Origin: Deltaproteobacteria bacterium
GTDB taxonomy: Bacteria > Desulfobacterota > Desulfobulbia > Desulfobulbales > JAGXFP01
NCBI GenBank assembly: GCA_020056965.1
Contig: JAGVGT010000021.1
Location: forward strand, 30,717-94,716
Direction of reading: 5' to 3'
DNA: 64,000 bases
Positions 1,036 to 64,000 of this stretch are shown in pieces. Made by a program: the position numbers and the translations under genes. The stretch's first letter is position 1; each line of letters opens with the position of its first letter. Below the pieces are notes generated by a model, which did no database searches, was not told the DNA's origin, and saw nothing but the letters and a program-made list of their open reading frames with translations.

Positions 1036-1443
1036 TTACCAGCAGGCAAGCTTTCGTGTGGCTGATGTTGTCTTTCGTTTCAGAGCGCTTCTTTTTAAAA
1101 AAGTAAAACTAGAATAGCACTACTAAAATCTAATCGTGGCATAGCTACTACATTCAAGTTGCAAATTCAATTAGCGCTTAAGTTTTACATCAAAACCTAC
1201 AGATACCACACTGTGGCAGCAAGTGCTACGTACTAGTGCGTACTTTATTCTTTATTTACAATTAGTTGGTGCGCATTTTTTTGTTAGTAATCATTATCCT
1301 GATTTTCCATTATTATTTTGTGAATTCAACTATTTGGTTGATTTGTTTGCCTTGGTTTTTATAGAATGCTCGTTGGCGTTTCGACCATCTACCTAATTCT
1401 GGAGGGTAGAAAACCTTCACTTGTCATATAGCTGCATATTCGC

Positions 1444-2796
1444 ATGGTACCTACAGAAGAACTACAGGGGTTGTTAAATGGTTTGGCCAATCTGGATGAC
1501 AGTGGTTTATCCCTGCTTTCATCGTTGGCCAAGAGCAATAAAACGACTGCTGTCGTTCAGGGTAAAGTCCGGATTTGTATTTTAGAGGTTGAACGGCATG
1601 ATGATTATCTCCCCAGTATCTCCGTCTGCCTCAAAAATTATCGGCCATATTTCCAGGTAAGCACTTCAAGAAATTATTCAGATGCCCTCGACATGCTTGG
1701 CTCCGGAGAGGCTGTCACTTTGGTCATTATTGACCTGCGCCTCCCGGGAGTCGACGGGTTCAAACTCCTAGCCAAACTTTTTTGTGATTTCCCCAAGATT
1801 CCAGTGATTGTTTTACTGAGTAAGATTGATCCGGAATGGAGAGTTAATCTTGCGTCATTCTGTAACCTAGGCATGCTCAGTCACCCCCTAGATCTCAATG
1901 ATTTGCAGGATGTCATTGAAGAGCGGCTCGAGAATAAAGACGACTGGACCGGCAAAGCTAATGTGCTTGGCGCACTTCTGGCCCTGTTAGAAAACGAACA
2001 GAAGACTACTCTGATGGCGCTATCTTCTGGTTCGCAGAGCGGTTCATGTTTTGTGCGTAACGGCCAAATTATTGATGCCATCTGTGGTGACAAGAGCGGA
2101 GAAGGGGCGTTATGCGAATTATTGGGATGGCAGCGTCCTGAGGTGCTTTTTACTGATTTTGCTGATCCTAAAATTAAGCGAAAAATTAACCAATCAATCA
2201 TCGCGTTCGTAAGCGGGCAGGTTGCGTGCCTACGAAAAGTTGAAACAAATGATTTATCCATGCCAGGCGGTAGTGAAGAATTTTCTGGAAAAGGGCCAGG
2301 CAAACCTATAGAATCTCAGAATGTGTCAAACATCTTCAGGGGTGAAGGTGAGAAGACAGGAAAAAGAGTTACGAATCACGACGTCGGGGCTGCTGTCGGC
2401 CCAAAAAACTTAAAGGAGGAATCGATTATGGCATTGGAAAGCTATCTGGAAAGATTTAAAAAAATTAATGGTTACAAGGCATCGGCAATAATGAATTTTA
2501 CTGGTGAGATTCTTGCCCAGGATTCCAATGACCCAAATATTGATCTGGGCATGGTAGGCGCAACCTTCAACGATATCTTTCGGACCGCCCATGAAGCCTC
2601 AGACAAGATCGGCCTCGAGGCCTGTCGTGAGGCTGCCATCAGCACACCGAAAGGCATAATCATCATGCGTTGCTCTGGAATTAAGGCTAAAGTTCATTAC
2701 CACACCATCGCCATTTTCAGCGCCGACGGCAACCAGGCGCTAGCCAAAATGGAAATGGAGAAGATGATCCCGGCAGTTATGGACGAGTTGGGTTGA
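1444..2796 (+). CDS. Multidomain signalling protein: degenerate receiver, then a PATAN (DUF4388)-like domain, then a C-terminal Roadblock/LC7 domain
   Basis: 450 aa. The receiver-like segment has an acceptor Asp context (VIIDLRLPGVDG) but no N-terminal DD pair, and reads HP where KP is expected. The middle segment (SGSCFVRNGQIIDAICGDKSGEGALCELLGW) resembles DUF4388/PATAN. The C-terminus (GYKASAIMNFTGEILA…TFNDIFRTAHEAS) is Roadblock/LC7-like. Confidence 0.65.
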   Translation: MVPTEELQGLLNGLANLDDSGLSLLSSLAKSNKTTAVVQGKVRICILEVERHDDYLPSISVCLKNYRPYFQVSTSRNYSDALDMLGSGEAVTLVIIDLRLPGVDGFKLLAKLFCDFPKIPVIVLLSKIDPEWRVNLASFCNLGMLSHPLDLNDLQDVIEERLENKDDWTGKANVLGALLALLENEQKTTLMALSSGSQSGSCFVRNGQIIDAICGDKSGEGALCELLGWQRPEVLFTDFADPKIKRKINQSIIAFVSGQVACLRKVETNDLSMPGGSEEFSGKGPGKPIESQNVSNIFRGEGEKTGKRVTNHDVGAAVGPKNLKEESIMALESYLERFKKINGYKASAIMNFTGEILAQDSNDPNIDLGMVGATFNDIFRTAHEASDKIGLEACREAAISTPKGIIIMRCSGIKAKVHYHTIAIFSADGNQALAKMEMEKMIPAVMDELG

Positions 2797-2822
2797 TAGC
2801 TATTTTGTCTGTGGAGTAATAA

Positions 2823-3251
2823 ATGGTCAATCCAGACAGGGCTAAGCCTAAAGACACCTATGATCATATAGATCACGAGGAAGAACTCCTTGGGGGTTAT
2901 TTGTCGAGGCTACAGAAAGTTAAAGGGTATATGGCTTCGGCCATTATGACTTTCCGCGGAGAACTACTTGCAAGTCATTCGTCTGATTCCTTGATTGACT
3001 TGCAAGTAGTTGCCAAGACCTTTAACGATATATTCAGGACAGCCCATGAGGCTTCTGAAAAGATCGGCCTTGAGGCATGTCTGGAAATCGTTATTAGTAC
3101 TCCCAGGGGCAGTATCATCATGCACAGCCCCGGGGTAGATGCCTTGATTCATTTTCACCTCCTGGCTATCATTTCATCCGACGGTAGTCTGGCCTTGGCC
3201 AAGATGGAACTGGACAGAATGACGGCACCAATTTTAGCAGAACTCTCCTGA
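2823..3251 (+). CDS. Roadblock/LC7 (MglB-like) domain protein, paralog of the C-terminus of the upstream gene
   Basis: 142 aa. It shares long identical strings with residues about 330-450 of the upstream ORF (TFNDIFRTAHEAS.KIGLEAC, LALAKME). Confidence 0.7.
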   Translation: MVNPDRAKPKDTYDHIDHEEELLGGYLSRLQKVKGYMASAIMTFRGELLASHSSDSLIDLQVVAKTFNDIFRTAHEASEKIGLEACLEIVISTPRGSIIMHSPGVDALIHFHLLAIISSDGSLALAKMELDRMTAPILAELS

Positions 3252-3337
3252 TATTGAGGTGTGGAGGGCGGGTGAGCCTCCCCCCACACCTTGTCTTTAT
3301 TCCAATTGCTGACATCCATACCCTTAAAGAGTGCAAG

Positions 3338-3685
3338 ATGAATGTCGTCGGAGAAATCAAGTGGTACCTTGACGGTGACTATGCCCACTTGAGGTTTTCC
3401 GAGGGAATCGGATCGTTCTCCATCGATACGGTGATGGTTCCCGCAATTCATCGTAGCAAGGGGATAGGTGGTAAACTGATCGGACATATCTTGATCCTGG
3501 CCGATCAACTCGGAAAACAGGTGCGACTCTCGGCCCGACCGATTGGCGATACGTCCGAAGAACGTCTGCAAAGGTTGATTGCCTACTATCAAAGGTTTGG
3601 TTTTTACGTTGAAGACCGGGGCAACTCGATTGCATATATGGTTAGAGACGTGCCAACGACCTTTAAGCCGGAGATTGTTGAGTAA
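3338..3685 (+). CDS. Small GNAT-like acetyltransferase-fold protein
   Basis: The ATG at 3338 lies inside the 3254..3685 track ORF. A motif-A-like segment is present (VPAIHRSKGIGGKLIGHILILADQLG), followed by YYQRFGF. Confidence 0.5.
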   Translation: MNVVGEIKWYLDGDYAHLRFSEGIGSFSIDTVMVPAIHRSKGIGGKLIGHILILADQLGKQVRLSARPIGDTSEERLQRLIAYYQRFGFYVEDRGNSIAYMVRDVPTTFKPEIVE

Positions 3686-54237: not shown

Positions 54238-56436
54238 ATGATCGATGTAATAAAATTGGCTTTGGCCGGTAATCCCAATGCGGGCAAAACTACCCTTTTC
54301 AATAGCCTGACCGGGTCCCGGCAACATGTCGGTAACTACCCCGGGGTTACGGTTGAAAAAAAAGAGGGGTTTTACCGGGTTTCGCCGGATCAACAGGTAA
54401 GGGTGGTTGATCTGCCCGGCACCTATTCGCTCACTGCCTACTCGGTTGAGGAGGTGGTGGCCCGCGACTTCCTGATCCACGAACAACCAGAGGTGGTAAT
54501 TAATATCACCGATGCCGCCAACCTGGAGCGGCATCTCTATCTGACCTGTCAGTTTCTCGAGCTGGGTGTGCCGGTTGTCATCGCCCTCAACATGATTGAT
54601 GTCGCTAGAGATAGGGGCATCTCTATTGATGTCGAAAAGCTCTCCAGGCTACTTGACGTCCCTGTCGTGCCGATCTCGGCCCGTTCCGGTGAAGGGGTTG
54701 AGGCGCTGATGCAAGAGGCTATGACGGTGGCTTCGGCCGGTCGGGAATGGCAGGAGATCAGACTTTCTTACGGGGATGACCTCGATTCGGCGCTCCTGGA
54801 AATGACGAATTTGATCAGCGCTAACTCTTTTCTCACCGACATCTATCCGGCTCGCTGGCTGGCCTTGAAGTACCTGGAGAGTGACAGCCAAATCGTCGAG
54901 AAGGGGAGGGAGTTTGCTGAGCTGAGTGGTTTGCGCAGTGTTGGTGAGCAGCTGGAGAAGATGGTCGCCGTGGTAAGCAACCACCTACAGGTCACCCTGG
55001 AAACGGTACCGGAAGCCCTGATCGCCGACCATCGTTATGGCTATATTAAATCCATTATCCGTCAAGGGGTGGTTAGCCGTTCGCATGACGAGGAACGGAT
55101 TTATGCCTCCGACCGCATTGATCGAGTGGTGACCAATCGGGTAATGGGGCCATTGATCATGCTGGCGGTGCTCCTGGGTCTCTATCAGTTTACCTTCACC
55201 TACAGTGCCCTGCCGGTGGCCTGGCTGGAAATCGGCTTCGGTTGGCTTACCAGGGTCATCGAGCATTCCTTGCCTCCAGGGCACCTCAGGTCTCTCCTGA
55301 CATCGGGGATTATTGGCGGAGTCGGTGGGGTCCTTGGTTTTGTGCCGTTAATCATGTTCATGTTTTTCGGTATCGCCATTTTGGAGGATTCAGGTTACCT
55401 GGCGAGAGTGGCCTTCATGATGGATCGTATTTTCAGGATCTTTGGCCTGCACGGCAGTTCGGTAATGCCTTTCATCCTCTCAGGGGGTATCGCTGGCGGC
55501 TGCGCGGTTCCCGGGGTTATGGCGACCCGCACGTTGCGTTCGCCCAAGGAGCGGATGGCCACTTTGCTTACCGCGCCCTTCATGAACTGCGGAGCCAAGT
55601 TGCCGGTATTAGCCCTGCTGATTGGGACCTTCTTCGCTGGAAACCAGGCGGGCATGATGTTTATGCTGACCATGCTGTCGTGGGTTGTGGCCCTGTTGGT
55701 GGCCAAGCTGCTCAGGGTGACGGTTCTGCGCGGCGAGCCGACCCCTTTTGTCATGGAGTTGCCTACTTACCGCTTACCAACTTTTAAAGGGCTGGCTATC
55801 CATACGTGGGAGAAGACCTGGCAGTATGTCCGCAAAGCCGGCACCGTCATTCTCGGGGTCTCAATCCTGCTCTGGGCAACGATGACTTTCCCGGGACTGT
55901 CCACCGAGGAAGAGTATTTGTTTGACCAACAACGGCAACAGATGCAGGCCGAATATGGCGGAGTGGTTGGATCTGTTGCTCTCCAGGAAAAGCTTGCTCG
56001 ACTGGATGGGGCGCGGGCCGAGCAGGCCCTGCAGCATTCGGTGGCAGGCCGACTCGGGCGCCTGTTGGAAGGAATTACTTGGATGGCCGGCTTTGACTGG
56101 CGCACCAATATCGCTTTGGTGGGAGGGGTCGCCGCCAAAGAGATAGTCATTTCCACCTTGGGGACCGCATATTCCCTCGGCGCGGTTGGTCAGGAAGCCG
56201 ATGACTCTCTCTCAAAGACCTTGGCAATGGCCCCGAACTGGAACCGGGTCAAGGCCTTGAGCCTGATCCTTTTCATCATGTTTTATTCTCCGTGTTTTGT
56301 CACGGTTGTCTGTATCGTCCGGGAAACCGGCTCCTGGAAATGGGGCGCCTTCTCCATAGTCTTCAATACCACCTTCGCTTTTTTGCTGGCGACAGTCATC
56401 TATCAGGTGAGTCTCGCTCTGGGGCTGGCTGGTTGA
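54238..56436 (+). CDS. feoB: Ferrous iron transporter FeoB
   Basis: 732 aa with the N-terminal G-domain (GNPNAGKTTLFN, DLPGTYSL) and a polytopic membrane domain. Confidence 0.95.
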   Translation: MIDVIKLALAGNPNAGKTTLFNSLTGSRQHVGNYPGVTVEKKEGFYRVSPDQQVRVVDLPGTYSLTAYSVEEVVARDFLIHEQPEVVINITDAANLERHLYLTCQFLELGVPVVIALNMIDVARDRGISIDVEKLSRLLDVPVVPISARSGEGVEALMQEAMTVASAGREWQEIRLSYGDDLDSALLEMTNLISANSFLTDIYPARWLALKYLESDSQIVEKGREFAELSGLRSVGEQLEKMVAVVSNHLQVTLETVPEALIADHRYGYIKSIIRQGVVSRSHDEERIYASDRIDRVVTNRVMGPLIMLAVLLGLYQFTFTYSALPVAWLEIGFGWLTRVIEHSLPPGHLRSLLTSGIIGGVGGVLGFVPLIMFMFFGIAILEDSGYLARVAFMMDRIFRIFGLHGSSVMPFILSGGIAGGCAVPGVMATRTLRSPKERMATLLTAPFMNCGAKLPVLALLIGTFFAGNQAGMMFMLTMLSWVVALLVAKLLRVTVLRGEPTPFVMELPTYRLPTFKGLAIHTWEKTWQYVRKAGTVILGVSILLWATMTFPGLSTEEEYLFDQQRQQMQAEYGGVVGSVALQEKLARLDGARAEQALQHSVAGRLGRLLEGITWMAGFDWRTNIALVGGVAAKEIVISTLGTAYSLGAVGQEADDSLSKTLAMAPNWNRVKALSLILFIMFYSPCFVTVVCIVRETGSWKWGAFSIVFNTTFAFLLATVIYQVSLALGLAG

Positions 56437-56567
56437 ATGGACCGCCGGGGGCTGCCCGGGAGATTAGGGGTTTAACGTTGACACGCGGTCTAGGCCAACT
56501 ACTCCAATTCTAGGCATTCTGGACTGATATTGTTGATCGGGCTGGGGCCGGTCTTGCTGATTAATGG

Positions 56568-56596
56568 TTGCCGAAGCAGGGGAATTGAGTTATAGA
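56568..56596 (+). promoter_or_regulatory. Sigma-70-type promoter upstream of tRNA-Arg
   Basis: TTGCCG-N17-TATAGA. The -10 element ends 16 nt before the tRNA 5-prime end. Confidence 0.5.
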
Positions 56597-56612
56597 ATGC
56601 ACTTCAAATTTG

Positions 56613-56689
56613 GCACCCGTAGCTCAGCTGGATAGAGTACCTGACTACGAATCAGGTGGTCGCATGTTCGAATCATGCCGGGTGCACCA
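56613..56689 (+). tRNA. tRNA-Arg (anticodon ACG)
   Basis: GCACCCGTAGCTCAGCTGGATAGAGTACCTGACTACGAATCAGGTGGTCGCATGTTCGAATCATGCCGGGTGCACCA. The anticodon loop is CTACGAA and CCA is encoded. Confidence 0.95.
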
Positions 56690-56696
56690 GTAAATC

Positions 56697-56735
56697 AAGG
56701 ACTTAGGCCAAGTGGCTTAAGTCCTTTTTTGTTTT
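56697..56735 (+). terminator. Intrinsic terminator after tRNA-Arg
   Basis: 13-bp stem (aaggacttaggcc / ggcttaagtcctt, one G-U pair), loop AAGT, followed by TTTTTTGTTTT. Confidence 0.75.
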
Positions 56736-56905
56736 ATGCACTCTTGGGTCACTCGCATAAAACAATCCGCAATAAATCCCCATTCCCAAGACACGATCAG
56801 AGCGACGTTTAGCCTTACCGCCTGGTAATTTCGCTACGTTAGGATTCCGATTCTCTCCCGTTATTCTGGCAAATTATACGATTGCGGTATAATCGGTTGT
56901 TGCGT

Positions 56906-57778
56906 TCAGCTGGTTTTGTGCTTCCGCGGGCGACTGGGCATGGCACCGGCCTGTCTGCTCAAGCTCCGCAATAGATGTTCGGCCATGAAGACGTGGTTGC
57001 TGACCTTGATCAGAGAGTCGTACCAATCGATCAACTCTCGACTAGAGGAATCCCCGGCACTGGAGAGATTGTCGTACAATGCCTCATCCGGGTAACCCAA
57101 GGCCAGGTTGGTGATTGCGGCGGATATGCGGTCATGGAAAAGTTTTTGATGCCGGAACGGATCCTGGTTCACCGAACGGTTACGAGCAATCTCTTCTACC
57201 AAGGGCAGTATGGTGGTTAAACATTCCCGAAGAGGAAGGCCGACAGCCTTCGAGGCAGCGACTTCGTCGCTGATTTGTTGGAAAGGAGCCCGGAAATGGT
57301 CGATCCCTTTCTCGTCCTGAATTACCTTGCCGACGGGAGGCCAAGACTCGCCACTGTGAAAGCGCAGGGCAAAGGCCGTAATAAAAAATTCCCTGATTCG
57401 GTCAGAGGCCAGGTGCAGCTTGTTTGTCGTATCAGCAAAGTGGTAGCTGAAGGAATAACCGCTATCGTTCAATAATGAGTCGGTGGCGTCATGATAGAGG
57501 CAGGCAAAGCCAAGAGAATGTCTGGCGCTTCTCATCAGGATGGTGAATTCATCGCCCAATCCCACTAGCTTCTTATGCTCCGGTGGACTCTCCTGCCACC
57601 TGGCATGCCCGAGGTACTCAGGATCCTGCTCGCCGTTACTTAGCCAGCCGTATTGATTCAACTCATAGAGGCCGCTGACATTGAAAAATTGGCGCATTTC
57701 CTCATCGAGATATTCGACCAACTTTTCCCGGCTAATGAATTTTATCTGCCCCATCGGTTCCCCCAAGTGCTTCGACAT
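56906..57778 (-). CDS. Hypothetical protein, no family recognised
   Basis: 290-aa ORF. Met9 at 57754 has a better Shine-Dalgarno sequence (GGGGGA). The only suggestive feature is an R-x5-H string (RHQKLFH) in the C-terminal third. Confidence 0.5.
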   Translation of the reverse strand: MSKHLGEPMGQIKFISREKLVEYLDEEMRQFFNVSGLYELNQYGWLSNGEQDPEYLGHARWQESPPEHKKLVGLGDEFTILMRSARHSLGFACLYHDATDSLLNDSGYSFSYHFADTTNKLHLASDRIREFFITAFALRFHSGESWPPVGKVIQDEKGIDHFRAPFQQISDEVAASKAVGLPLRECLTTILPLVEEIARNRSVNQDPFRHQKLFHDRISAAITNLALGYPDEALYDNLSSAGDSSSRELIDWYDSLIKVSNHVFMAEHLLRSLSRQAGAMPSRPRKHKTS

Positions 57779-57974
57779 TTAGGCAGTTGTAATTTATTAC
57801 CACCGCCGGAAGCAAAACTTTCCCACCATCAAAAGGAAATGGAGGTTAACGAAAAGTGGGCGGTAATGATATGGGGGGACGCCGTATTCTGTATAGGGTT
57901 ACGCCCTACTTTCTGGCCACGAGGAATCTCCGGCCAATGGGTCGGAATCTGAAGTGGGGCAGGTCTTCGTGGTC

Positions 57975-59279
57975 TCAGATGATGTAATAGGCTCGAAGTT
58001 GACGGAAGGTGGTCGAAACCACCACTTTGGAGACAATGATGGCGGGAATGGCAAAGAGCATGCCGGCAAATCCGAAGAGTAGCGTCCCACCCATTACCCC
58101 CAAGATAACGATCAGGGGATGGAGGTTGACAGCGCTACCCAGGATGTAAGGTTGAAAAATAGCATTATCGGCGAGGTGGACCAGGAAAACTGACGCAGCT
58201 ATGGCAAGGATCAGATTGGTATCGTTAACAAAGGGCAAAAGCGGCGAAATCTCTTCGGCCATGACGGCATATATAATGCCCACGATCAGGCCAATGGCTG
58301 TCCCCAGGAAGGGGATGGCATTGGCGATTCCGGCGATGGCGCCGATTATAACGGACCAACGAGGGTCCACCCCGATCAGAAACAAACAGAGGGAAAAGCT
58401 CGCGCCGACCAGGAGGCACTCCATGGCGGTGCCGCGCAGGTACCGCCCCAGAGCCGTGTTGATATTGTCGATGAGCGTAAGGGTCAGTTCGAAATAGCGG
58501 TTGGGTACGCTGCGGATCAGGCCTTGCTTGAGCCGGCCGTCATCGAACAGCAGGGTCAGGAAGACCAGAGGCGTGACCAGCCAGAGTGAGGCCGTGCTGA
58601 TTATGGTCCGAAGCAGGGAGTGGTGGTGCCCTGCCTGGCTTGGGGCAAAGAAAACTTCGGTGGCGCTGGCTTCCCCTTGGCCGGGTATTTTAGGTTGTTC
58701 CCGGTCGCGGGCCTGATTGGCTTGATGGTATTGCCAGTATTTTTCCGGCACCGGTCGACCTCGCAGATTGTCGGTGGCCTCATGATAACTGGTGAACAAC
58801 TGCTGATCCTCGGCGGAGAGGGCCAGGATTGTATCAATTTTCTCCCGTATGGGCTCCAGCTCTGGCCCTGCCAGGGAATACAGCCAGTTACCGCGGTGTT
58901 TTTCGTTGTCCAGACCCATCAAACGGTTGAATTTATTATTTACTTTATAGCGGGCCCGGACTTGTAGTTCCAGCTCGGTCTGCTGGTCGGGGATGATGCT
59001 GCTGGCCAGACGGAGAGCTGAGAAGAGCAGGAGGCAGAAGAATCCGGAGAGGCAGAGAATAGCCCAAAAATGGGAAAATCCCTTATCCTTGAGATAGCCG
59101 ATCAGCGGCAGGCAGAGATAAGCCATGACGGCGCCAATGGCCAGCGGCAACATCAAGCCGCGCAAAGCCCAGAGCAGAGCTAGCCCCCCCAAGCCTGCTA
59201 TCGTGAGCGCCACTGCATAGACTATGCGACCGCGGCGTTCCCGCCGGCGGTTTTCTTCACTGCTCAGATAACTGGACAT
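57975..59279 (-). CDS. AI-2E (PerM/YhhT, UPF0118) family membrane protein with an enlarged soluble loop
   Basis: 434 aa with multiple TM helices and the family C-terminal core (IGAIAGIANAIPFLGTAIGLIVGIIY…LHPLIVILGVMGG). A hydrophilic segment of about 130 aa spans residues about 95-225. Confidence 0.75.
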   Translation of the reverse strand: MSSYLSSEENRRRERRGRIVYAVALTIAGLGGLALLWALRGLMLPLAIGAVMAYLCLPLIGYLKDKGFSHFWAILCLSGFFCLLLFSALRLASSIIPDQQTELELQVRARYKVNNKFNRLMGLDNEKHRGNWLYSLAGPELEPIREKIDTILALSAEDQQLFTSYHEATDNLRGRPVPEKYWQYHQANQARDREQPKIPGQGEASATEVFFAPSQAGHHHSLLRTIISTASLWLVTPLVFLTLLFDDGRLKQGLIRSVPNRYFELTLTLIDNINTALGRYLRGTAMECLLVGASFSLCLFLIGVDPRWSVIIGAIAGIANAIPFLGTAIGLIVGIIYAVMAEEISPLLPFVNDTNLILAIAASVFLVHLADNAIFQPYILGSAVNLHPLIVILGVMGGTLLFGFAGMLFAIPAIIVSKVVVSTTFRQLRAYYII

Positions 59280-59763
59280 TGGCGTTCTTGAGGCGGGTGC
59301 CGATGATTACCGCCAAGGCGCGGTATACACTCAGACCAATCTGGGGAGAGGTGGTCAGCAGGTGATCCAGGTCGGTTCGGGAAATGGCGTAGATATCGGT
59401 GGGCTCAACAGCCATGGCTGAGGCGGAGCGGGGTGAGTCGTCCAGCAGGGCAAGTTCTCCGAAAAAGTCGCCGGGATTCAGGGTGGCGACGATGGTTTCG
59501 CGGCTGTCCGGGCCGTAATCAATGATGTTGACCTTGCCGGTTTTGATGATGAACATGGCGGCGCCCGGCTGCCCCTTGAGGAAGACAAATTCACCGTCCT
59601 GATAGGTTCGGTGGTGAATGATGCCGGAGAGGTTTCGCAGTTCCCGCCTGGATAGCGCGGCAAACAGTGGTGAGTTGCCCAGAGAATCGAGCATCGTGCG
59701 GGTTCGGTCATGGTCGCCACGGTGGAAGACGGTGATCCACAACGGGTGATTTTTTCTGATCAT
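59257..59763 (-). CDS. Stand-alone cyclic-nucleotide-binding (CAP effector) domain protein
   Basis: 168 aa with FLKGQPGAAMFIIKTGKV…GDFFGELALLDDSPRSASAMA, the cNMP-binding signature, and no HTH. Its 3-prime end overlaps the AI-2E gene start by 23 nt. Confidence 0.8.
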   Translation of the reverse strand: MIRKNHPLWITVFHRGDHDRTRTMLDSLGNSPLFAALSRRELRNLSGIIHHRTYQDGEFVFLKGQPGAAMFIIKTGKVNIIDYGPDSRETIVATLNPGDFFGELALLDDSPRSASAMAVEPTDIYAISRTDLDHLLTTSPQIGLSVYRALAVIIGTRLKNANVQLSEQ

Positions 59764-59908
59764 CGTGGTCTTCCTTGTTGCCGGACGGCGAATTCAGCGT
59801 AAGGCCTACCCGGTAAGGCTGATTTTATCCGGGGTGATAAATTCCCCACGGCCCCATCGTTTGAGTAAATTTGGTCAGGAGTAACCGCATCGGCTCCATC
59901 TTGCCCGA

Positions 59909-60892
59909 TTACGCGTAAGCCTGCAAGGCCTTCTGTAGTTCCTCCTGCAGGTCGGCGGCAAGTTCCGGCGGCGCCAAGACCTTTACCCCGGCGCCCCAGG
60001 ATAACACCCAACGTTTGACCTCGAAGAGATGATTGCTGGTGAAGGAGAGCAGTATTCCCCCGTCTGCCTGTCTCTCTAAAGCCTGGTCTCGGTGCCACTC
60101 CCTTTCCTCGACATAGGGGCGATGTTGCGGTGAAAAGAGAATCTTCACCACAAAATCGCGATCTCCTTGAAAGATCCCGAAATGGTGACCGGAAAATTTT
60201 TCGAAAGAGAACTCGGCGGGGATGACGAAGTCCTCACCACTGGTCCGAACCGCTCTGACCCTGGAGATGGCGAAGGTCCGGACTTCCCTGCGTAGATGAC
60301 AGTGGCCGATCAGGTACCACTCGCCCTGGAAGCTCACGATGTGATAGGGATCGACCAGTCGGTCGCTGCCGTCTTCATCCCCTGGTTTGAGATAATGGAT
60401 GGCAAGCTGGCGGCCGTGGCGTAAGCCTTCGGCAACTTTGTCCCAGATCGTCGGATCAATGGCCGAGCGACTTTCCGGGAATACCGTCATCCGCTCATCC
60501 ACCCAGGCTGGGTCCACCGAAATGCGTTCCGGCAGGGATGCCTCAATTTTTTTGAACACCGAGGCCAACTTGTGATAGAGAGGGCTGTTCTCGTACTGGC
60601 GGAGGGTTTTGCGAGCCAAGGAGATCGCGAACAGGTCGCTTTCGCTGATATGCATGGCCGGCAGGCTGTAGCTGGCTTCGGTGTAAAGATAGCCGTAACG
60701 CCGGCAATCGTAGGCTATGGGAGCGTCGCACTGGTTTTTTAGATAGTCGATATCCCGCCTGATGCTCTTGGCGCTTACCTCGTAGGCGGTGGCCATAGTG
60801 GCGCAGTTGGCCAGTCGGCCGCTGTGCATGCCGTCCCGGATCATGCGGTCGATGAAGATCAGTCGTTGTAGCTGGGCTTTATTACCGGTCAT
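59909..60892 (-). CDS. WYL-domain transcriptional regulator (HTH, WYL, C-terminal extension)
   Basis: 327 aa with an N-terminal wHTH (VSAKSIRRDIDYLK) and the WYL core (DPYHIVSFQGEWYLIGHCHLRREVRTFAISRV). Confidence 0.85.
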   Translation of the reverse strand: MTGNKAQLQRLIFIDRMIRDGMHSGRLANCATMATAYEVSAKSIRRDIDYLKNQCDAPIAYDCRRYGYLYTEASYSLPAMHISESDLFAISLARKTLRQYENSPLYHKLASVFKKIEASLPERISVDPAWVDERMTVFPESRSAIDPTIWDKVAEGLRHGRQLAIHYLKPGDEDGSDRLVDPYHIVSFQGEWYLIGHCHLRREVRTFAISRVRAVRTSGEDFVIPAEFSFEKFSGHHFGIFQGDRDFVVKILFSPQHRPYVEEREWHRDQALERQADGGILLSFTSNHLFEVKRWVLSWGAGVKVLAPPELAADLQEELQKALQAYA

Positions 60893-60952
60893 GGCTCCGT
60901 ACTCTCCGTCGGTATCGAAAAAAATATCCCGCCCATAAAAAAACCTCTGCCC

Positions 60953-60971
60953 TGGGACAGCGGTTGTCCCA
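60953..60971. promoter_or_regulatory. Candidate operator: perfect 7-bp inverted repeat TGGGACA-N5-TGTCCCA in the divergent promoter region
   Basis: Read directly from the sequence. It lies 61 nt upstream of the WYL gene start and overlaps a plausible plus-strand promoter, TTGTCC-N17-TATGTC (60964-60992). Confidence 0.45.
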
Positions 60972-61028
60972 CCCTTAACGTTATCCTATGTCCGAAATCT
61001 GGTCAAAACATTAATTCGGAGGAAGGTC

Positions 61029-61229
61029 ATGGAACGAAGTGGTTACTGGCGGAGCTACACCAAGGGCTGGGATAAGGAAAAGCGGGTCTGGCATCCCATT
61101 GATCTGGACGAAAAGAGCGGGGCCTTTGCCGCATCGCCGCCGGTCTACTATTGTGGGCGGTTCCTGCAAATGGAGAACTATCTGGCGGTACCGACCTTTC
61201 TGCGGCTCGGACGCCGACTGGCCGTCTGA
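61029..61229 (+). CDS. Small hypothetical protein (66 aa)
   Basis: The ATG is preceded by GGAGG at a 5-nt spacing. Codon usage looks coding-like. The gene is divergent from the WYL regulator. No family recognised. Confidence 0.5.
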   Translation: MERSGYWRSYTKGWDKEKRVWHPIDLDEKSGAFAASPPVYYCGRFLQMENYLAVPTFLRLGRRLAV

Positions 61230-61340
61230 GCCGCAGAAAGGCCGGCAGATTCGGGTTTATCTCCGGAGTTGGAACTGCTATGCTCGCGAAGTGCGGCACG
61301 GCAGCCGGCCGGAGACCGGGACAGAGAAGGGGAGGAAGCG

Positions 61341-61691
61341 GTGGAAAATTTCGAGGAACAGTGGAACCTGGAGATGGCATTGGCGGTGCTGGGCAGCGAA
61401 ACTGTCGATGGTGGCCTGTGGGCCGAGGCGGTTAAGTGGCTCCTGCTCTATGGGCCGCCGGGCCTGCACGAGGTGCTGGCCGCCGCCTCATCAGCTTCCT
61501 TTGCCCAGTGTTTCCCCGGGGTGCGGGTCAGCGGCCATGGTGACTCCGGCCAACCGTATTACGCGATTGCCGATCTGGCCGAGGCCCTAGGCGTTCCGGT
61601 CGCGGAGGCCGCCGAACGATTGGTCGAACTGCAGTCCACCCTCGGGGTCGAATTCCTGGTGGAAGCTGACCGGGTTTACAAGGTTAACTGA
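61341..61691 (+). CDS. Small hypothetical protein (116 aa from GTG)
   Basis: GTG at 61341 after GGGGAGGAAGCG. It is in the same frame as 61029..61229. A possible HTH-like stretch is present (YYAIADLAEALGVPVAEAAERL). No family recognised. Confidence 0.5.
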   Translation: MENFEEQWNLEMALAVLGSETVDGGLWAEAVKWLLLYGPPGLHEVLAAASSASFAQCFPGVRVSGHGDSGQPYYAIADLAEALGVPVAEAAERLVELQSTLGVEFLVEADRVYKVN

Positions 61692-61743
61692 GGTCCGGCG
61701 GGGCGGGCAATTCTTCCCGCTCCGCCGGTCGGTCGTCTGCTTC

Positions 61744-62697
61744 TCAATCGAGCAGCCTTTTCTGGCCGGTCAGTTTCTGCAGCCGGCCGATTTCCTGGGT
61801 GACCTCCAGTATCCCCAGGTATTCCCCTTCATCTCTGTAGACCGGAAAGTAGCGGATCAGCACCTTTTCGCCGCGGAAATCGATCCAGAACTCGGCGGTC
61901 TCCATGGTTCGGTTCTTGAACCCCTCGACGATCTGGGCCACCATATGCACGCTTTTTTCCGGATGGCATTTGTCCACCTTACGGCCGATGACCGAGCGGG
62001 TACGGGGAAAGATCTTTTCTTTGTCCAACCGGTTGAAATAGGCCACGGTGTCGGCGTCGTCCACGAAGGTGACCTCGAAGGGCAGGGTCTCCATGATCGC
62101 GTGCAGCTGCAGGTAGGAAAGGTTTTCAATCAATCTCCCCTTTTTGCTCGTGCCGCCTTCCACCTCACCGACCATGGTGGTGAATTTCTCCCAGGCCTCC
62201 GGCCCGTACGCATCAAGATTGATCTTTCGGCACTCTTCCAGAAGTTTTTCGGCGTCTCCTGCCCGCATGACCTGACGGGCCATGGGATAGAGGATATCGT
62301 TTTCCTTCCAGATGTGTTCGGCCCGGATCTTCAGATATTCCAGACCTTCGCGACGGAATTTGCTGACCACCTCTGGCGCGGCCTTGCCCAGTCCGGCCAG
62401 GCTGGCCGCCATCTGCTGGAGCAGCTGGCGCTCGGCCTGATGTTCCATGAGCATGACCCCGAGGGGGCCGCCCTGTGAGGGGATGCCTCGCTCCTGCATG
62501 AGCGGGAAGAGAAATTCTTCTTCCTTGCGGTTGTGGATTTTGTCGCCGAACTCCATAAGAAAATCGAGGGCCCGGCCGATCTGGAGCTGGTCGCCGGCGG
62601 GCAGCTCTTCCAGGTTGGTTTTCAGGACTGCCATGGCCCGTTCGATCAGTTCATGTTCGGCGATTAGAAAATCGTCCCATCTGGTGAATTCGCCCAT
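61744..62697 (-). CDS. Hemerythrin-like domain, DUF438 and PAS-like domain protein
   Basis: The ATG at 62697 is preceded by GGAGG at a 5-nt spacing. N-terminal hemerythrin/HHE-like helices are present (IAEHELIERAM…MEHQAER). The DUF438 core reads LPFEVTFVDDADTVAYFN…KCHPEKSVH. Confidence 0.75.
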   Translation of the reverse strand: MGEFTRWDDFLIAEHELIERAMAVLKTNLEELPAGDQLQIGRALDFLMEFGDKIHNRKEEEFLFPLMQERGIPSQGGPLGVMLMEHQAERQLLQQMAASLAGLGKAAPEVVSKFRREGLEYLKIRAEHIWKENDILYPMARQVMRAGDAEKLLEECRKINLDAYGPEAWEKFTTMVGEVEGGTSKKGRLIENLSYLQLHAIMETLPFEVTFVDDADTVAYFNRLDKEKIFPRTRSVIGRKVDKCHPEKSVHMVAQIVEGFKNRTMETAEFWIDFRGEKVLIRYFPVYRDEGEYLGILEVTQEIGRLQKLTGQKRLLD

Positions 62698-62908
62698 CTG
62701 TGCCTCCAAATATTTGGGTTGCTTACGCAAGACTTCCGCCGGATTCCGATGGTTCGAATGCGTCCGGGCTATGGTCAAGCCATTATTCTGGCCCGAGGAA
62801 CTTGTTAAGGGCCTGATTTGATATTACTATGGCACACGATGCCGCGCGCCTGCCTTGATTTTAGTCAAGGAGGTCTTTTTTTTCAGAAAATTACCAGGCG
62901 GAAATGCC

Positions 62909-63433
62909 ATGAAGAAACACTACCTTGTCCCCATTATTATTCTGCTGTCGTTGGCGACCCTGCTGGCTGGCTGCGATCGCTCTCGCAAGGAGCCTGCCAC
63001 CTTTTCGAACACGGCCATCGGCAAACCGGCCCCGGATTTTGTGCTTAAGGACACCAAAGGCAAAACCTGGCATCTGGCCGAACTTAAAGGCAAGGTGGTG
63101 TTCGTCCATTTCTGGGCCACTTGGTGTCCGCCCTGTCGAGGAGAGTTGCCAGCCATACAGGCGTTGTCACCGTCGCTACCGCCGGAGGCCTTCCAGATTC
63201 TGGCCATTCTCAGCAACGATCAGGCCGAAGTGGCCGAGAAGTTTGCCGACGGGATTGGTTTCGCCGCGCCGATTCTGCTCGATCCGGAAAACCAGGCATC
63301 CAAGGCATACGGGACCACCGGGGTGCCGGAAACCTACATCGTTGATAAAAACGGCGTGCTGCGAGAGGCCATTATCGGTGCCATGGACTGGAATTCCCCG
63401 GCGGCCCGCCGAATGCTGGCCAACTATCTTTAG
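62909..63433 (+). CDS. TlpA/ResA-like thiol:disulfide oxidoreductase lipoprotein
   Basis: ATG at 62909. Signal peptide with a lipobox (LLAGC) and thioredoxin motif (FWATWCPPCRGELP). Confidence 0.85.
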   Translation: MKKHYLVPIIILLSLATLLAGCDRSRKEPATFSNTAIGKPAPDFVLKDTKGKTWHLAELKGKVVFVHFWATWCPPCRGELPAIQALSPSLPPEAFQILAILSNDQAEVAEKFADGIGFAAPILLDPENQASKAYGTTGVPETYIVDKNGVLREAIIGAMDWNSPAARRMLANYL

Positions 63434-63435
63434 GA

Positions 63436-64000
63436 ATGGCCACTCCGGTCGAGATTCTGACCTGCTACCGGGCTTTGGGCGATTATTGCGATGCTCTAGC
63501 GCAGCGGGTGCGGGAAAGGTTCGGAACGGCCTGGCAGTGCCGGGCCGGCTGCGGCGGCTGCTGCCAGCTGAGTACGGTCTGCGGTCTGGAGGCGGTGGCC
63601 CTCCTTCAGGCTGGGTTGGGGTCCCGATTTTCCGGTCAAATCGGGAGCGGAAATGGCCGCTGCTGTTTGCTTAGGGAAGATCGCTGTCTGGTCTACGAAC
63701 ACCGGCCGCTGATCTGCCGGACCCATGGTCTGCCTCTGGTCAGCGAGACCTTGACCGGGGGAGAAGTGGACTGCTGCCCCTTGAACCTGCCGGCCCTGGC
63801 GGAGGTTGCGGAGTTAGAGATGGACTTGGTCCTGAATCTGGACCGACTAACCGAAAATCTGATGCGCCTCAACCTGGCCTTTTTTCTGGTTCTGGGGCGA
63901 CCGGAACTGGCCGAGGCCCGATTCGCCTTGACCTCGCTGGTTTCCGGTGACAATCTGCCTCCGGAACTGCTGGCGGTAGCCGGGCTTTCCCAACCACCCT
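63436..64000 (+). CDS. YkgJ-family CxxCxxCC cysteine-cluster protein (partial, runs off the window)
   Basis: Hand translation from the ATG at 63436 gives MATPVEILTCYRALGDYCDAL…CRAGCGGCCQLS…CCLLREDRCLVYEHRPLICRTHG. There is no stop before position 64000. It is not in the track because it is open-ended. Confidence 0.65.
   Translation, partial: MATPVEILTCYRALGDYCDALAQRVRERFGTAWQCRAGCGGCCQLSTVCGLEAVALLQAGLGSRFSGQIGSGNGRCCLLREDRCLVYEHRPLICRTHGLPLVSETLTGGEVDCCPLNLPALAEVAELEMDLVLNLDRLTENLMRLNLAFFLVLGRPELAEARFALTSLVSGDNLPPELLAVAGLSQPP

Follow-up and report, generated by a model that had tools for sequence, protein, structure and literature searches.

The stretch analysed here, a 64-kb DNA segment of a Desulfobulbales contig (JAGVGT010000021.1; hereafter the window), encodes a regulator of the DriD/PafBC type, built of a predicted helix-turn-helix (HTH), a WYL domain and a WCX extension, which faces two small open reading frames (ORFs), a gene for a protein of 66 amino acids (aa) and orf116, across an intergenic region holding a palindromic box (Table 1). 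This arrangement had been described in a sequence-only reading and all of its features were found again. The regulator is transcribed divergently from both small ORFs, each of which has a good Shine-Dalgarno sequence, and the inverted repeat between them is perfect, its halves (60953-60959 and 60965-60971) being 100% complementary around a 5-nt spacer. Searches of Pfam, NCBIfam, PHROGs and PADLOC returned no family match for either small ORF, orf116 having one sub-threshold winged HTH (wHTH) score, which agrees with the earlier view that they belong to no recognisable family. Both are genuine genes, as indicated by their homologue families and by the synonymous codon variation in the motif of the 66-aa protein. 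The subject of this analysis is the unit formed by the regulator, the box and the 66-aa gene, whose product ends in a segment resembling the tail of the cell division protein FtsZ.

Table 1. Coordinates of the regulator, the 66-aa gene, orf116 and the elements between them in the window
Feature	Position	Strand	Details
HTH-WYL-WCX regulator gene, DriD/PafBC type	59909-60892	-	327 aa; Pfam WYL and WCX
Intergenic region, regulator to 66-aa gene	60893-61028		136 nt
A-tract CATAAAAAAA	60934-60943	+	10 bp 5' of the box; ~-60 to -51 of the predicted small-ORF promoter
19-bp palindromic box TGGGACA-N5-TGTCCCA	60953-60971		core GGAC-N7-GTCC; presumed regulator site
Predicted -10-like hexamer TATCCT, small-ORF promoter	60982-60987	+	from box-N10-TAnnnT conservation
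Putative sigma-70 promoter, regulator gene	61006-60978	-	-35 TTGACC 61006-61001, 17-nt spacer, -10 TAACGT 60983-60978
Shine-Dalgarno GGAGGA of 66-aa gene	61018-61023	+	read in the sequence; GGAGG kept 5' of orthologous starts
66-aa gene	61029-61229	+	GGAGGA 5 nt upstream; variable body, conserved C-terminus
C-terminal motif ENYLAVPTFLRLGRRLAV, residues 49-66 of the 66-aa protein	61173-61226	+	FtsZ-tail-like
orf116	61341-61691	+	116 aa from GTG; GGAGGA 4 nt upstream

Conservation of the regulator and 66-aa gene pair

Scanning species-representative genomes with the regulator yielded 27 loci, the closest of which (53-71% identity) come from Desulfobulbales, Desulfurivibrionaceae and other metagenome-assembled genomes of Thermodesulfobacteriota. 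The window proteins were mapped onto these loci (labelled L001 onwards) and onto contigs found via the small protein. The 66-aa gene adjoins the WYL gene, or in one case (L039) lies near it, in 23 of the 23 informative loci, and it is divergent from the WYL-WCX gene in the window, L001-L010, L020, L029-L034, L036, L038, L042 and L043. In the comparison across relatives that the sequence-only reading had itself suggested, a divergent WYL regulator and a small gene of no known family with a palindromic box between them come out as a conserved pairing. In L039 the WYL gene is found 2.7 kb from the small ORF, behind three inserted genes (1405-3562 of that locus) that lie on the regulator's strand and encode proteins of 103 aa, 424 aa (an AAA_23/SMC_N-like ATPase) and 190 aa; this trio may be a repair or defence cassette recruited to the same regulatory unit.

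The neighbourhoods of the pair differ among the relatives, L029 having Tad pilus genes, L004 a GIY-YIG gene and L006 a gene for a pseudouridine synthase. The second small ORF, orf116, is missing from L001, L004, L006, L029, L039 and L043, and in L007 it stands on the other side, at a distance of ~5 kb. On the far side of the regulator, a pair of genes for a cyclic nucleotide monophosphate (cNMP)-binding protein and an AI-2E transporter is missing from L008, L009, L031 and L032, where a gene for a 282-aa orphan protein is directly 3' of the WYL gene; elsewhere the orphan follows the cNMP/AI-2E pair. As orf116, the cNMP/AI-2E pair and the orphan are not constant, the conserved unit is the regulator, the box and the 66-aa gene, neither a two-gene operon nor a 5-kb system. 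The two-gene module proposed earlier was therefore given up, since the 66-aa gene alone travels with the regulator.

The FtsZ-like C-terminus of the 66-aa protein

The most informative feature of the locus is the C-terminus of the 66-aa protein, which had been missed in the earlier reading. A profile search for the protein recovered ~58 clusters in an index of 5.8 billion proteins, and an exhaustive profile scan of 1.84 billion proteins gave 58 representatives. These members are 39-119 aa long and unnamed or 'hypothetical', with the exception of one spurious repeat protein. As a whole the family is small and does not extend beyond Desulfobulbales-like lineages. A pattern scan of metagenomes matched at least 600 stretches, 4 of which were confirmed against the first query sequence, and provided no usable co-occurrence statistic.

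Alignment of the family revealed a variable body followed by the near-invariant segment [ED]-x-Y-L-[ADE]-[VI]-P-T-[FY]-[ILM]-R-[RQL]-G, which ends 6-9 residues from the stop in 57 of the 59 members and 12 and 16 residues from it in the other two (16 in P0052). The window protein carries it as ENYLAVPTFLRLGRRLAV, and other members as ERYLDIPTYLRRG, EKYLDIPTYLRRG and QYLDVPTFLRRG. Besides, two alternative short motifs occur at the N-terminus within the family, MExxxYW or EF[VI]EGF[LM]AA. As each of the invariant residues L, P, T, R and G is written with 3-6 different synonymous codons across 21 loci, the motif is under selection at the protein level.

FtsZ filaments are anchored to FtsA and further partners by the FtsZ tail. 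The E. coli protein ends in KEPDYLDIPAFLRKQAD (NC_000913.3; PMC4117426), within which the conserved C-terminal peptide is DYLDIPAFLRKQAD, and the B. subtilis tail reads LDIPTFLR (residues 369-376). The motif of the small proteins agrees with E. coli FtsZ at Y371, L372, I374, P375, F377, L378 and R379, and among these I374 and L378 have a critical part in the binding of ZipA, FtsA and MinC (PMC4117426). When the family profile was compared with 177,635 PDB sequences at E <= 10, the sole match was the B. subtilis FtsZ tail, and this held for the whole-protein profile and for a 20-column profile of the motif. At the same threshold, the motif profile recovered family members only, and no FtsZ proteins, from the index of 5.8 billion proteins.

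Judged residue by residue, the C-terminus of the 66-aa protein copies the conserved C-terminal peptide of FtsZ, a predicted mimicry at the level of the motif. Both have Y-L-[D/A/E]-[I/V]-P-[A/T]-[F/Y]-[L/I/M]-R-[K/R] near the C-terminus after a variable linker. Unlike the E. coli tail, the small proteins always have Thr in place of Ala, as in B. subtilis, and unlike FtsZ tails they continue with a Gly after the basic residues and then a short hydrophobic tail (ITIAV or RLAV). No tubulin/FtsZ GTPase domain was detected in the 66-aa protein by Pfam or NCBIfam, and it is too short to hold one; lacking the FtsZ core, it would be a tail mimic and not an FtsZ, and cannot polymerise like FtsZ. Homology to the division inhibitors SulA, SidA/DidA, YneA and AciT was not found through Pfam, NCBIfam, PHROGs or PADLOC, and the exhaustive profile search brought up small uncharacterised proteins.

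A different role of this segment has to be weighed, in which the regulation is as proposed below and the C-terminus serves as an amphipathic helix for membrane targeting, a protease degron or a feedback peptide acting on the WYL regulator. The C-terminal segment is basic and the most amphipathic part of the protein (hydrophobic moment, muH, 0.6-0.9), most members end in hydrophobic residues, as degrons often do, and the likeness to FtsZ is an 8-to-11-residue motif without statistical significance. However, the invariant Y-L-x-[VI]-P-T-[FY]-x-R-x-G in ~60 otherwise divergent proteins is more specific than a helix or a degron needs, the central Pro-Thr is unusual in membrane-targeting helices, and the match covers residues through which FtsZ contacts its partners (PMC4117426), so we regard a helix, degron or feedback peptide as unlikely. 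A membrane-targeting amphipathic helix at the N-terminus of the protein was also considered and was rejected, as the hydrophobic-moment values do not support it.

Regulator, palindromic box and the two divergent promoters

The Pfam WYL domain (PF13280, 4.1e-21) covers residues 150-216 of the regulator, with the W192-Y193-L194 motif present, and the WCX extension (PF25583, 6.5e-19) covers residues 248-323 and aligns to the C-terminal domain of DriD up to residue 326. The predicted N-terminal winged HTH reached sub-threshold Pfam scores (HTH_11, 0.051; HTH_DeoR, 0.063). The WYL models of PADLOC match the regulator at 1e-38, spanning residues 28-311, and the helix SAKSIRRDIDYL, including K42 and R46, is kept in 26-29 of the 29 homologues. 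The nearest solved relatives by sequence are PafBC (6sj9, 2.6e-14) and DriD (9cu3, 9pfq and 8tp8, ~1e-11), and the repressor CapW (7tb5) is much weaker, at 2.3e-6 and in the WYL domain only. PafBC and DriD are activators of SOS-independent damage responses that sense single-stranded DNA (ssDNA).

The residue numbering of DriD was transferred through a HMMER alignment, which is validated by the recovery of every DriD residue named in PMC9186387 at the expected position. The ssDNA-contact residues Y168, R178, Y192 and R204 of DriD correspond to Y167, R178, Y193 and R205 of the regulator and are present in 26-29 of the 29 homologues, while W206 and Y240 of DriD become F207 and F241. Mutation of Y168, R178, Y192 and R204 together abolished the ssDNA-stimulated operator binding of DriD (PMC9186387). 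As the four residues of this inactivating multi-mutant are kept, it is plausible that the regulator senses ssDNA through its WYL domain.

A palindrome by itself is weak evidence, but more than 25 loci have kept this one, with the consensus T[GA]GGAC(A)-N5-(T)GTC[CT][CT]A, upstream of a WYL orthologue, and hence, on comparative grounds, it is not a chance repeat; the box is presumed to be the binding site of the regulator. Within the window the exact GGACA-N5-TGTCC occurs once. Its core, GGAC-N7-GTCC, has the half-site type and spacing of the DriD box (CGAC-N7-GTCG) and the DdaA box (CGACAATATGTGTCG) (PMC13010146). In 20 of the 21 loci with readable sequence, exactly 10 bp separate the box, on the small-ORF strand, from a TAnnnT that comes after it. 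As the box fills the -35 position of the small-ORF promoter (~-41 to -23), no -35 hexamer is possible there. The PafBC motif is tGTCgg-N10-tAnnnT without a -35 (PMC8635444); for DriD, the distance between site and -10 is the same from one promoter to the next, and these promoters have no good -35 (PMC13004042). By analogy, box-N10-TAnnnT without a -35 is the signature of promoters activated in the PafBC/DriD manner rather than of a repressor operator, and such a promoter is predicted here. In L039, box-N10-TACCCT stands directly 5' of the small ORF; as it stayed with that ORF after the regulator gene moved, the box belongs to the promoter of the small gene.

The sequence-only reading had placed the small-ORF promoter at TTGTCC-N17-TATGTC. 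Both hexamers are present (60964-60969 and 60987-60992), but the TATGTC position is not conserved, so this promoter was rejected in favour of the -10-like hexamer that is kept (Table 1). The repressor geometry suggested with it fares differently on the two sides of the box: the fixed box-N10-TAnnnT, the lack of a -35 and the non-conserved earlier -10 speak against it for the small-ORF promoter, whereas it fits the regulator's own promoter. On that side TTGAC[TC]-N17-TAnnnn is shared by the window, L001, L002, L005, L008/9 and L020 and is less clear in the more distant subclade. Counted from this putative promoter, the regulator's own transcript would have the box at ~+1 to +19, a placement classic for autorepression. 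A strict consensus promoter scan calls neither the small-ORF nor the regulator promoter, and we infer both.

An A/T tract is found 9-13 bp 5' of the box (~-50 to -60) in nearly all orthologous loci and is a possible UP-like element. The 5' leader of the regulator contains a hairpin (CTGTCCCAGGGCAG, 60947-60960, minus strand) that overlaps the box in its right half, with AGG and T7 coming after it (T-tract 60934-60946). This hairpin with its T-tract was scored as terminator-like by the scan, and a T-tract 8-10 nt past the box recurs in orthologous loci; it could act as a leader attenuator, or as an UP-like A-tract for the small-ORF promoter on the other strand. In the predicted 5' untranslated region of the 66-aa gene there is a 6-nt inverted repeat, TCCGAA/TTCGGA (60991-60996 and 61015-61020), whose right arm overlaps the Shine-Dalgarno sequence and might occlude translation. 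A second GGAC-N7-GTCC occurs inside the small-ORF coding region of L009 (5741-5755), L033 (6118-6132) and L034 (4849-4863) and is missing in the window; it was treated as chance, since the codons for G-[QR]-x-M-S explain it and the window does without it.

The more distant WYL homologues L011-L016 (48-54% identity) have the same GGAC-N7-GTC[CT] box next to other divergent genes. As these homologues keep the box yet face different genes, the regulator and box family appears to drive varied cargo. The divergent gene encodes a 743-aa tandem AAA ATPase in L011, the L013 copy of which runs off the contig end, and proteins of 172 and 283 aa without known family in L014 and L015; L012 keeps the box with a different upstream region, and L014-L016 have two boxes each.

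With regard to known systems, the module is closest in its logic to DriD-DidA of Caulobacter crescentus and DdaA-AciT of Acinetobacter. They share a homodimer-type HTH-WYL-WCX regulator (DriD has the same length of 327 aa), the kept ssDNA-contact residues (four of DriD's), a palindromic xGAC-N7-GTCx box at a fixed distance from the -10 without a good -35, and a small target protein of ~60-70 aa. Unlike in both systems, the box is GGAC/GTCC and not CGAC/GTCG, the regulator gene is next to its target and divergent from it, and the effector is unrelated to DidA and AciT, bearing an FtsZ-tail motif and, in the window protein, no apparent hydrophobic stretch. The box also ends 10 bp from the -10, unlike the ~23 bp of DriD.

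PafBC of mycobacteria and SiwR are WYL activators that act at a -26 element by sigma adaptation. The present regulator resembles PafBC as its closest solved sequence relative, and its promoter has a TGTC-containing element, N10-11 and TAnnnT without a -35, with the GTC triplet at ~-28 to -26. PafBC is, however, a fused or heterodimeric two-WYL protein reading one half-site, whereas here a single-copy protein has a full palindrome reaching ~-41; the spacing is 1 bp longer, and the regulon is known as the adjacent gene alone. The promoter, with a full palindrome placed like the -26 element of PafBC, would fall between the activation modes of DriD and PafBC.

The earlier proposal, in which a WYL repressor of the BrxR/CapW type silences a toxic module for stress or phage defence, made of the two small ORFs and perhaps their neighbours, until a nucleic-acid ligand appears, would explain some of these features. 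The box overlaps both the core promoter of the small ORF and the transcript start of the regulator, so that a bound dimer could block RNA polymerase, and PADLOC WYL models do match the regulator. With the BrxR and CapW systems of BREX and CBASS the locus shares a predicted HTH-WYL architecture, a palindromic operator close to a promoter that is divergent or adjacent, and probably also autoregulation; BrxR-family proteins bind palindromic operators and repress (PMC9186387). Unlike those systems, the regulator has no adjacent defence system, its similarity to CapW is the weaker one, its nearest solved relatives being damage-response activators, and its promoter architecture speaks for activation, with a fixed spacing of box and -10 and no -35, as is typical of activator-dependent promoters (PMC8635444, PMC13004042). 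PADLOC found no defence match in the 66-aa protein, orf116, the orphan or the cNMP protein beyond a generic cNMP-binding domain, through which alone the cNMP protein weakly matched Pycsar/TIR effector models. A protein-pattern scan of viral contigs for the motif of the 66-aa protein gave 7 pattern matches and no relatives. Together with the lack of conservation of orf116 with the module, these results make a repressor-held defence module rather improbable.

The surroundings lead to the same judgement. The neighbours of the regulator include FeoB, tRNA-Arg, the AI-2E transporter, the hemerythrin-PAS protein and AhpC, and the neighbourhood is vertically conserved housekeeping synteny of Desulfobulbales-type genomes, not an island. 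As the flanking synteny is kept in relatives, the tRNA-Arg is no island boundary here. The idea of an anti-phage or 5-kb inducible system reaching down to the tRNA-Arg was abandoned on the absence of PADLOC defence matches, the inconstant cNMP/AI-2E pair and this synteny. The cNMP-binding protein (168 aa) overlaps the start of the AI-2E transporter (434 aa) by 23 nt (57975-59763, minus strand), likely as an operon, and in some relatives the pair is followed by a response regulator (Response_reg and GerE). Beyond them are FeoB (732 aa) and tRNA-Arg(ACG) (56613-56689), together spanning 54238-56689; a Rfam scan of 56000-64000 found no known RNA element except this tRNA. On the other flank (61744-63433), a hemerythrin-PAS_10 protein (344 aa, minus strand) is divergent from a lipoprotein-like AhpC/TSA redoxin (192 aa, plus strand); in many relatives the two genes are syntenic with the module, perhaps as a unit concerned with oxygen or oxidative stress.

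Two further proteins of the neighbourhood, orf116 and the 282-aa orphan, are not tied to the module by co-occurrence. For orf116, 26 homologues (43-91% identity) were found, and the GTG start is supported by the length of 115-117 aa in 18 of them. Its Pfam score to wHTH-HSP90_Na-assoc is sub-threshold (E 0.0015; 19.3 bits, where 23 are required). Its AlphaFold2 (AF2) model, with a predicted local distance difference test score (pLDDT) of 80, shows a helical domain and a (w)HTH-like C-terminal stretch of ~40 residues, and the fold search gave no significant structural neighbour for the model. It is possibly co-transcribed with the 66-aa gene in the window and is not core of the module. The orphan (56906-57754, minus strand, a 290-aa ORF) has 56 homologues, none with a Pfam domain; it is lineage-restricted and variably placed, and its AF2 model (pLDDT 79) is an all-helical bundle without an informative fold match.

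Proposed role of the module and its meaning

Bringing the regulator, box and C-terminal motif together, we propose, with a probability of roughly 0.5, that the locus is a damage-induced WYL module in which an autorepressed, ssDNA-sensing activator would drive an FtsZ-tail decoy that delays division. The three-part module is kept in Desulfobulbales-type Thermodesulfobacteriota. Its homodimer-type regulator would sense, through the WYL domain, ssDNA arising from DNA damage, and would bind the box in the -35-less promoter of the 66-aa gene; with its ligand bound, it would most likely activate that gene in the PafBC/DriD manner. From the same box, at the start of the transcript from its own sigma-70-like promoter, it would exert negative autoregulation. 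The induced protein would present its copy of the FtsZ C-terminal peptide at its extreme C-terminus, after the variable linker, and act as a decoy, competing against FtsZ filaments for FtsA and the other proteins that bind the tail. The Z ring would be untethered or destabilised, and division delayed until the damage signal fades. The anatomy of the locus, its conservation, the co-occurrence of its parts and the identity of the motif are observed here, and from them we infer the ssDNA ligand, the sign of regulation, the binding of FtsA and the inhibition of division. What the locus encodes is thus probably an inducible brake on cell division of a new kind, and not an anti-phage system.

This proposal has precedents on both of its sides. 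Small division inhibitors that are induced by damage under WYL control are known as DriD-DidA (PMC4211646, PMC9186387) and DdaA-AciT (PMC13010146), and free C-terminal fragments of FtsZ (residues 354-383) inhibit the growth of E. coli in vivo (PMC10769210). The narrower claim, that a natural decoy of ~65 aa outcompetes FtsZ for FtsA and other partners under a DriD/PafBC-like, ssDNA-sensing WYL activator at a -35-less promoter, is put forward tentatively, its chances being somewhat short of even. With SulA, YneA, SidA, MciZ and the phage Kil/Gp0.4 proteins the 66-aa protein would share small size, a presumed stress induction and a presumed block of the Z ring; unlike a relative of theirs, it has no sequence similarity to them. 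SulA, YneA, SidA, MciZ and Kil/Gp0.4 act on the FtsZ core or polymer interfaces, or on late divisome proteins, and DidA too acts through late divisome proteins and not by FtsZ-tail mimicry. We know of no small division inhibitor that has been described as an FtsZ-tail mimic, and a search of the literature found no natural FtsZ-tail decoy.

Several points weigh against the proposed decoy and its activator. The scores of the PDB comparison with the FtsZ tail (E 0.34 and 1.7) are suggestive and not significant alone, and neither the window nor the loci searched for them contain a host FtsZ or FtsA, so the tail comparison is with the E. coli and B. subtilis proteins and not with the host's. Monomeric FtsZ tail peptides bind their partners weakly, with Kd values in the tens of uM (PMC4117426, PMC10769210), and a decoy would therefore need high expression, avidity or extra contacts. 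On the side of the regulator, the match to the ssDNA contacts is partial, as DriD R176 (replaced by S) and R207 (replaced by A) are not kept. The HTH gave no alignment to the HTH of DriD or PafB, and K42 and R46 are therefore not equated with PafB R46 and R50. The 10 bp between box and -10 resemble the heterodimeric PafBC and not the homodimeric DriD, whose box ends at -36, and RNA polymerase might just as well be blocked by a dimer on a palindromic site at -41 to -23. It is also conceivable, though quite unlikely, that the FtsZ-like tail docks the protein on FtsA or the divisome as an adaptor and that its N-terminal motif brings another factor to the division site under stress: the two alternative conserved N-terminal motifs do suggest a second interaction surface, but they are short, subclade-specific and have no partner that could be recognised, the module has no third conserved gene, and the known WYL-controlled small proteins in such a context are inhibitors (PMC4211646, PMC13010146).

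In a damage-induced module with an FtsZ-tail decoy, the regulatory logic would be of a known type, a damage checkpoint in which a WYL activator turns on a small division inhibitor, and the mechanism of the effector would be the new part. WYL-controlled, SOS-independent damage checkpoints have so far come from Caulobacter, Acinetobacter and mycobacteria; if the proposal is true, they extend to sulfate-reducing Desulfobulbales-type bacteria of the Thermodesulfobacteriota. The effector would represent a new mechanistic class of bacterial division inhibitor that acts by mimicking the FtsZ tail and not by attacking FtsZ. This tail is a hub read by FtsA, ZipA, MinC, SlmA, ZapD, SepF and ClpX, and cells would be exploiting it for checkpoint control. 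The idea of a decoy makes a specific claim that would surprise specialists in cell division and costs little to test, and if it is true the small proteins of Desulfobulbales-like lineages would offer a peptide scaffold, shaped by evolution, with which the FtsZ-FtsA interface could be probed or inhibited.

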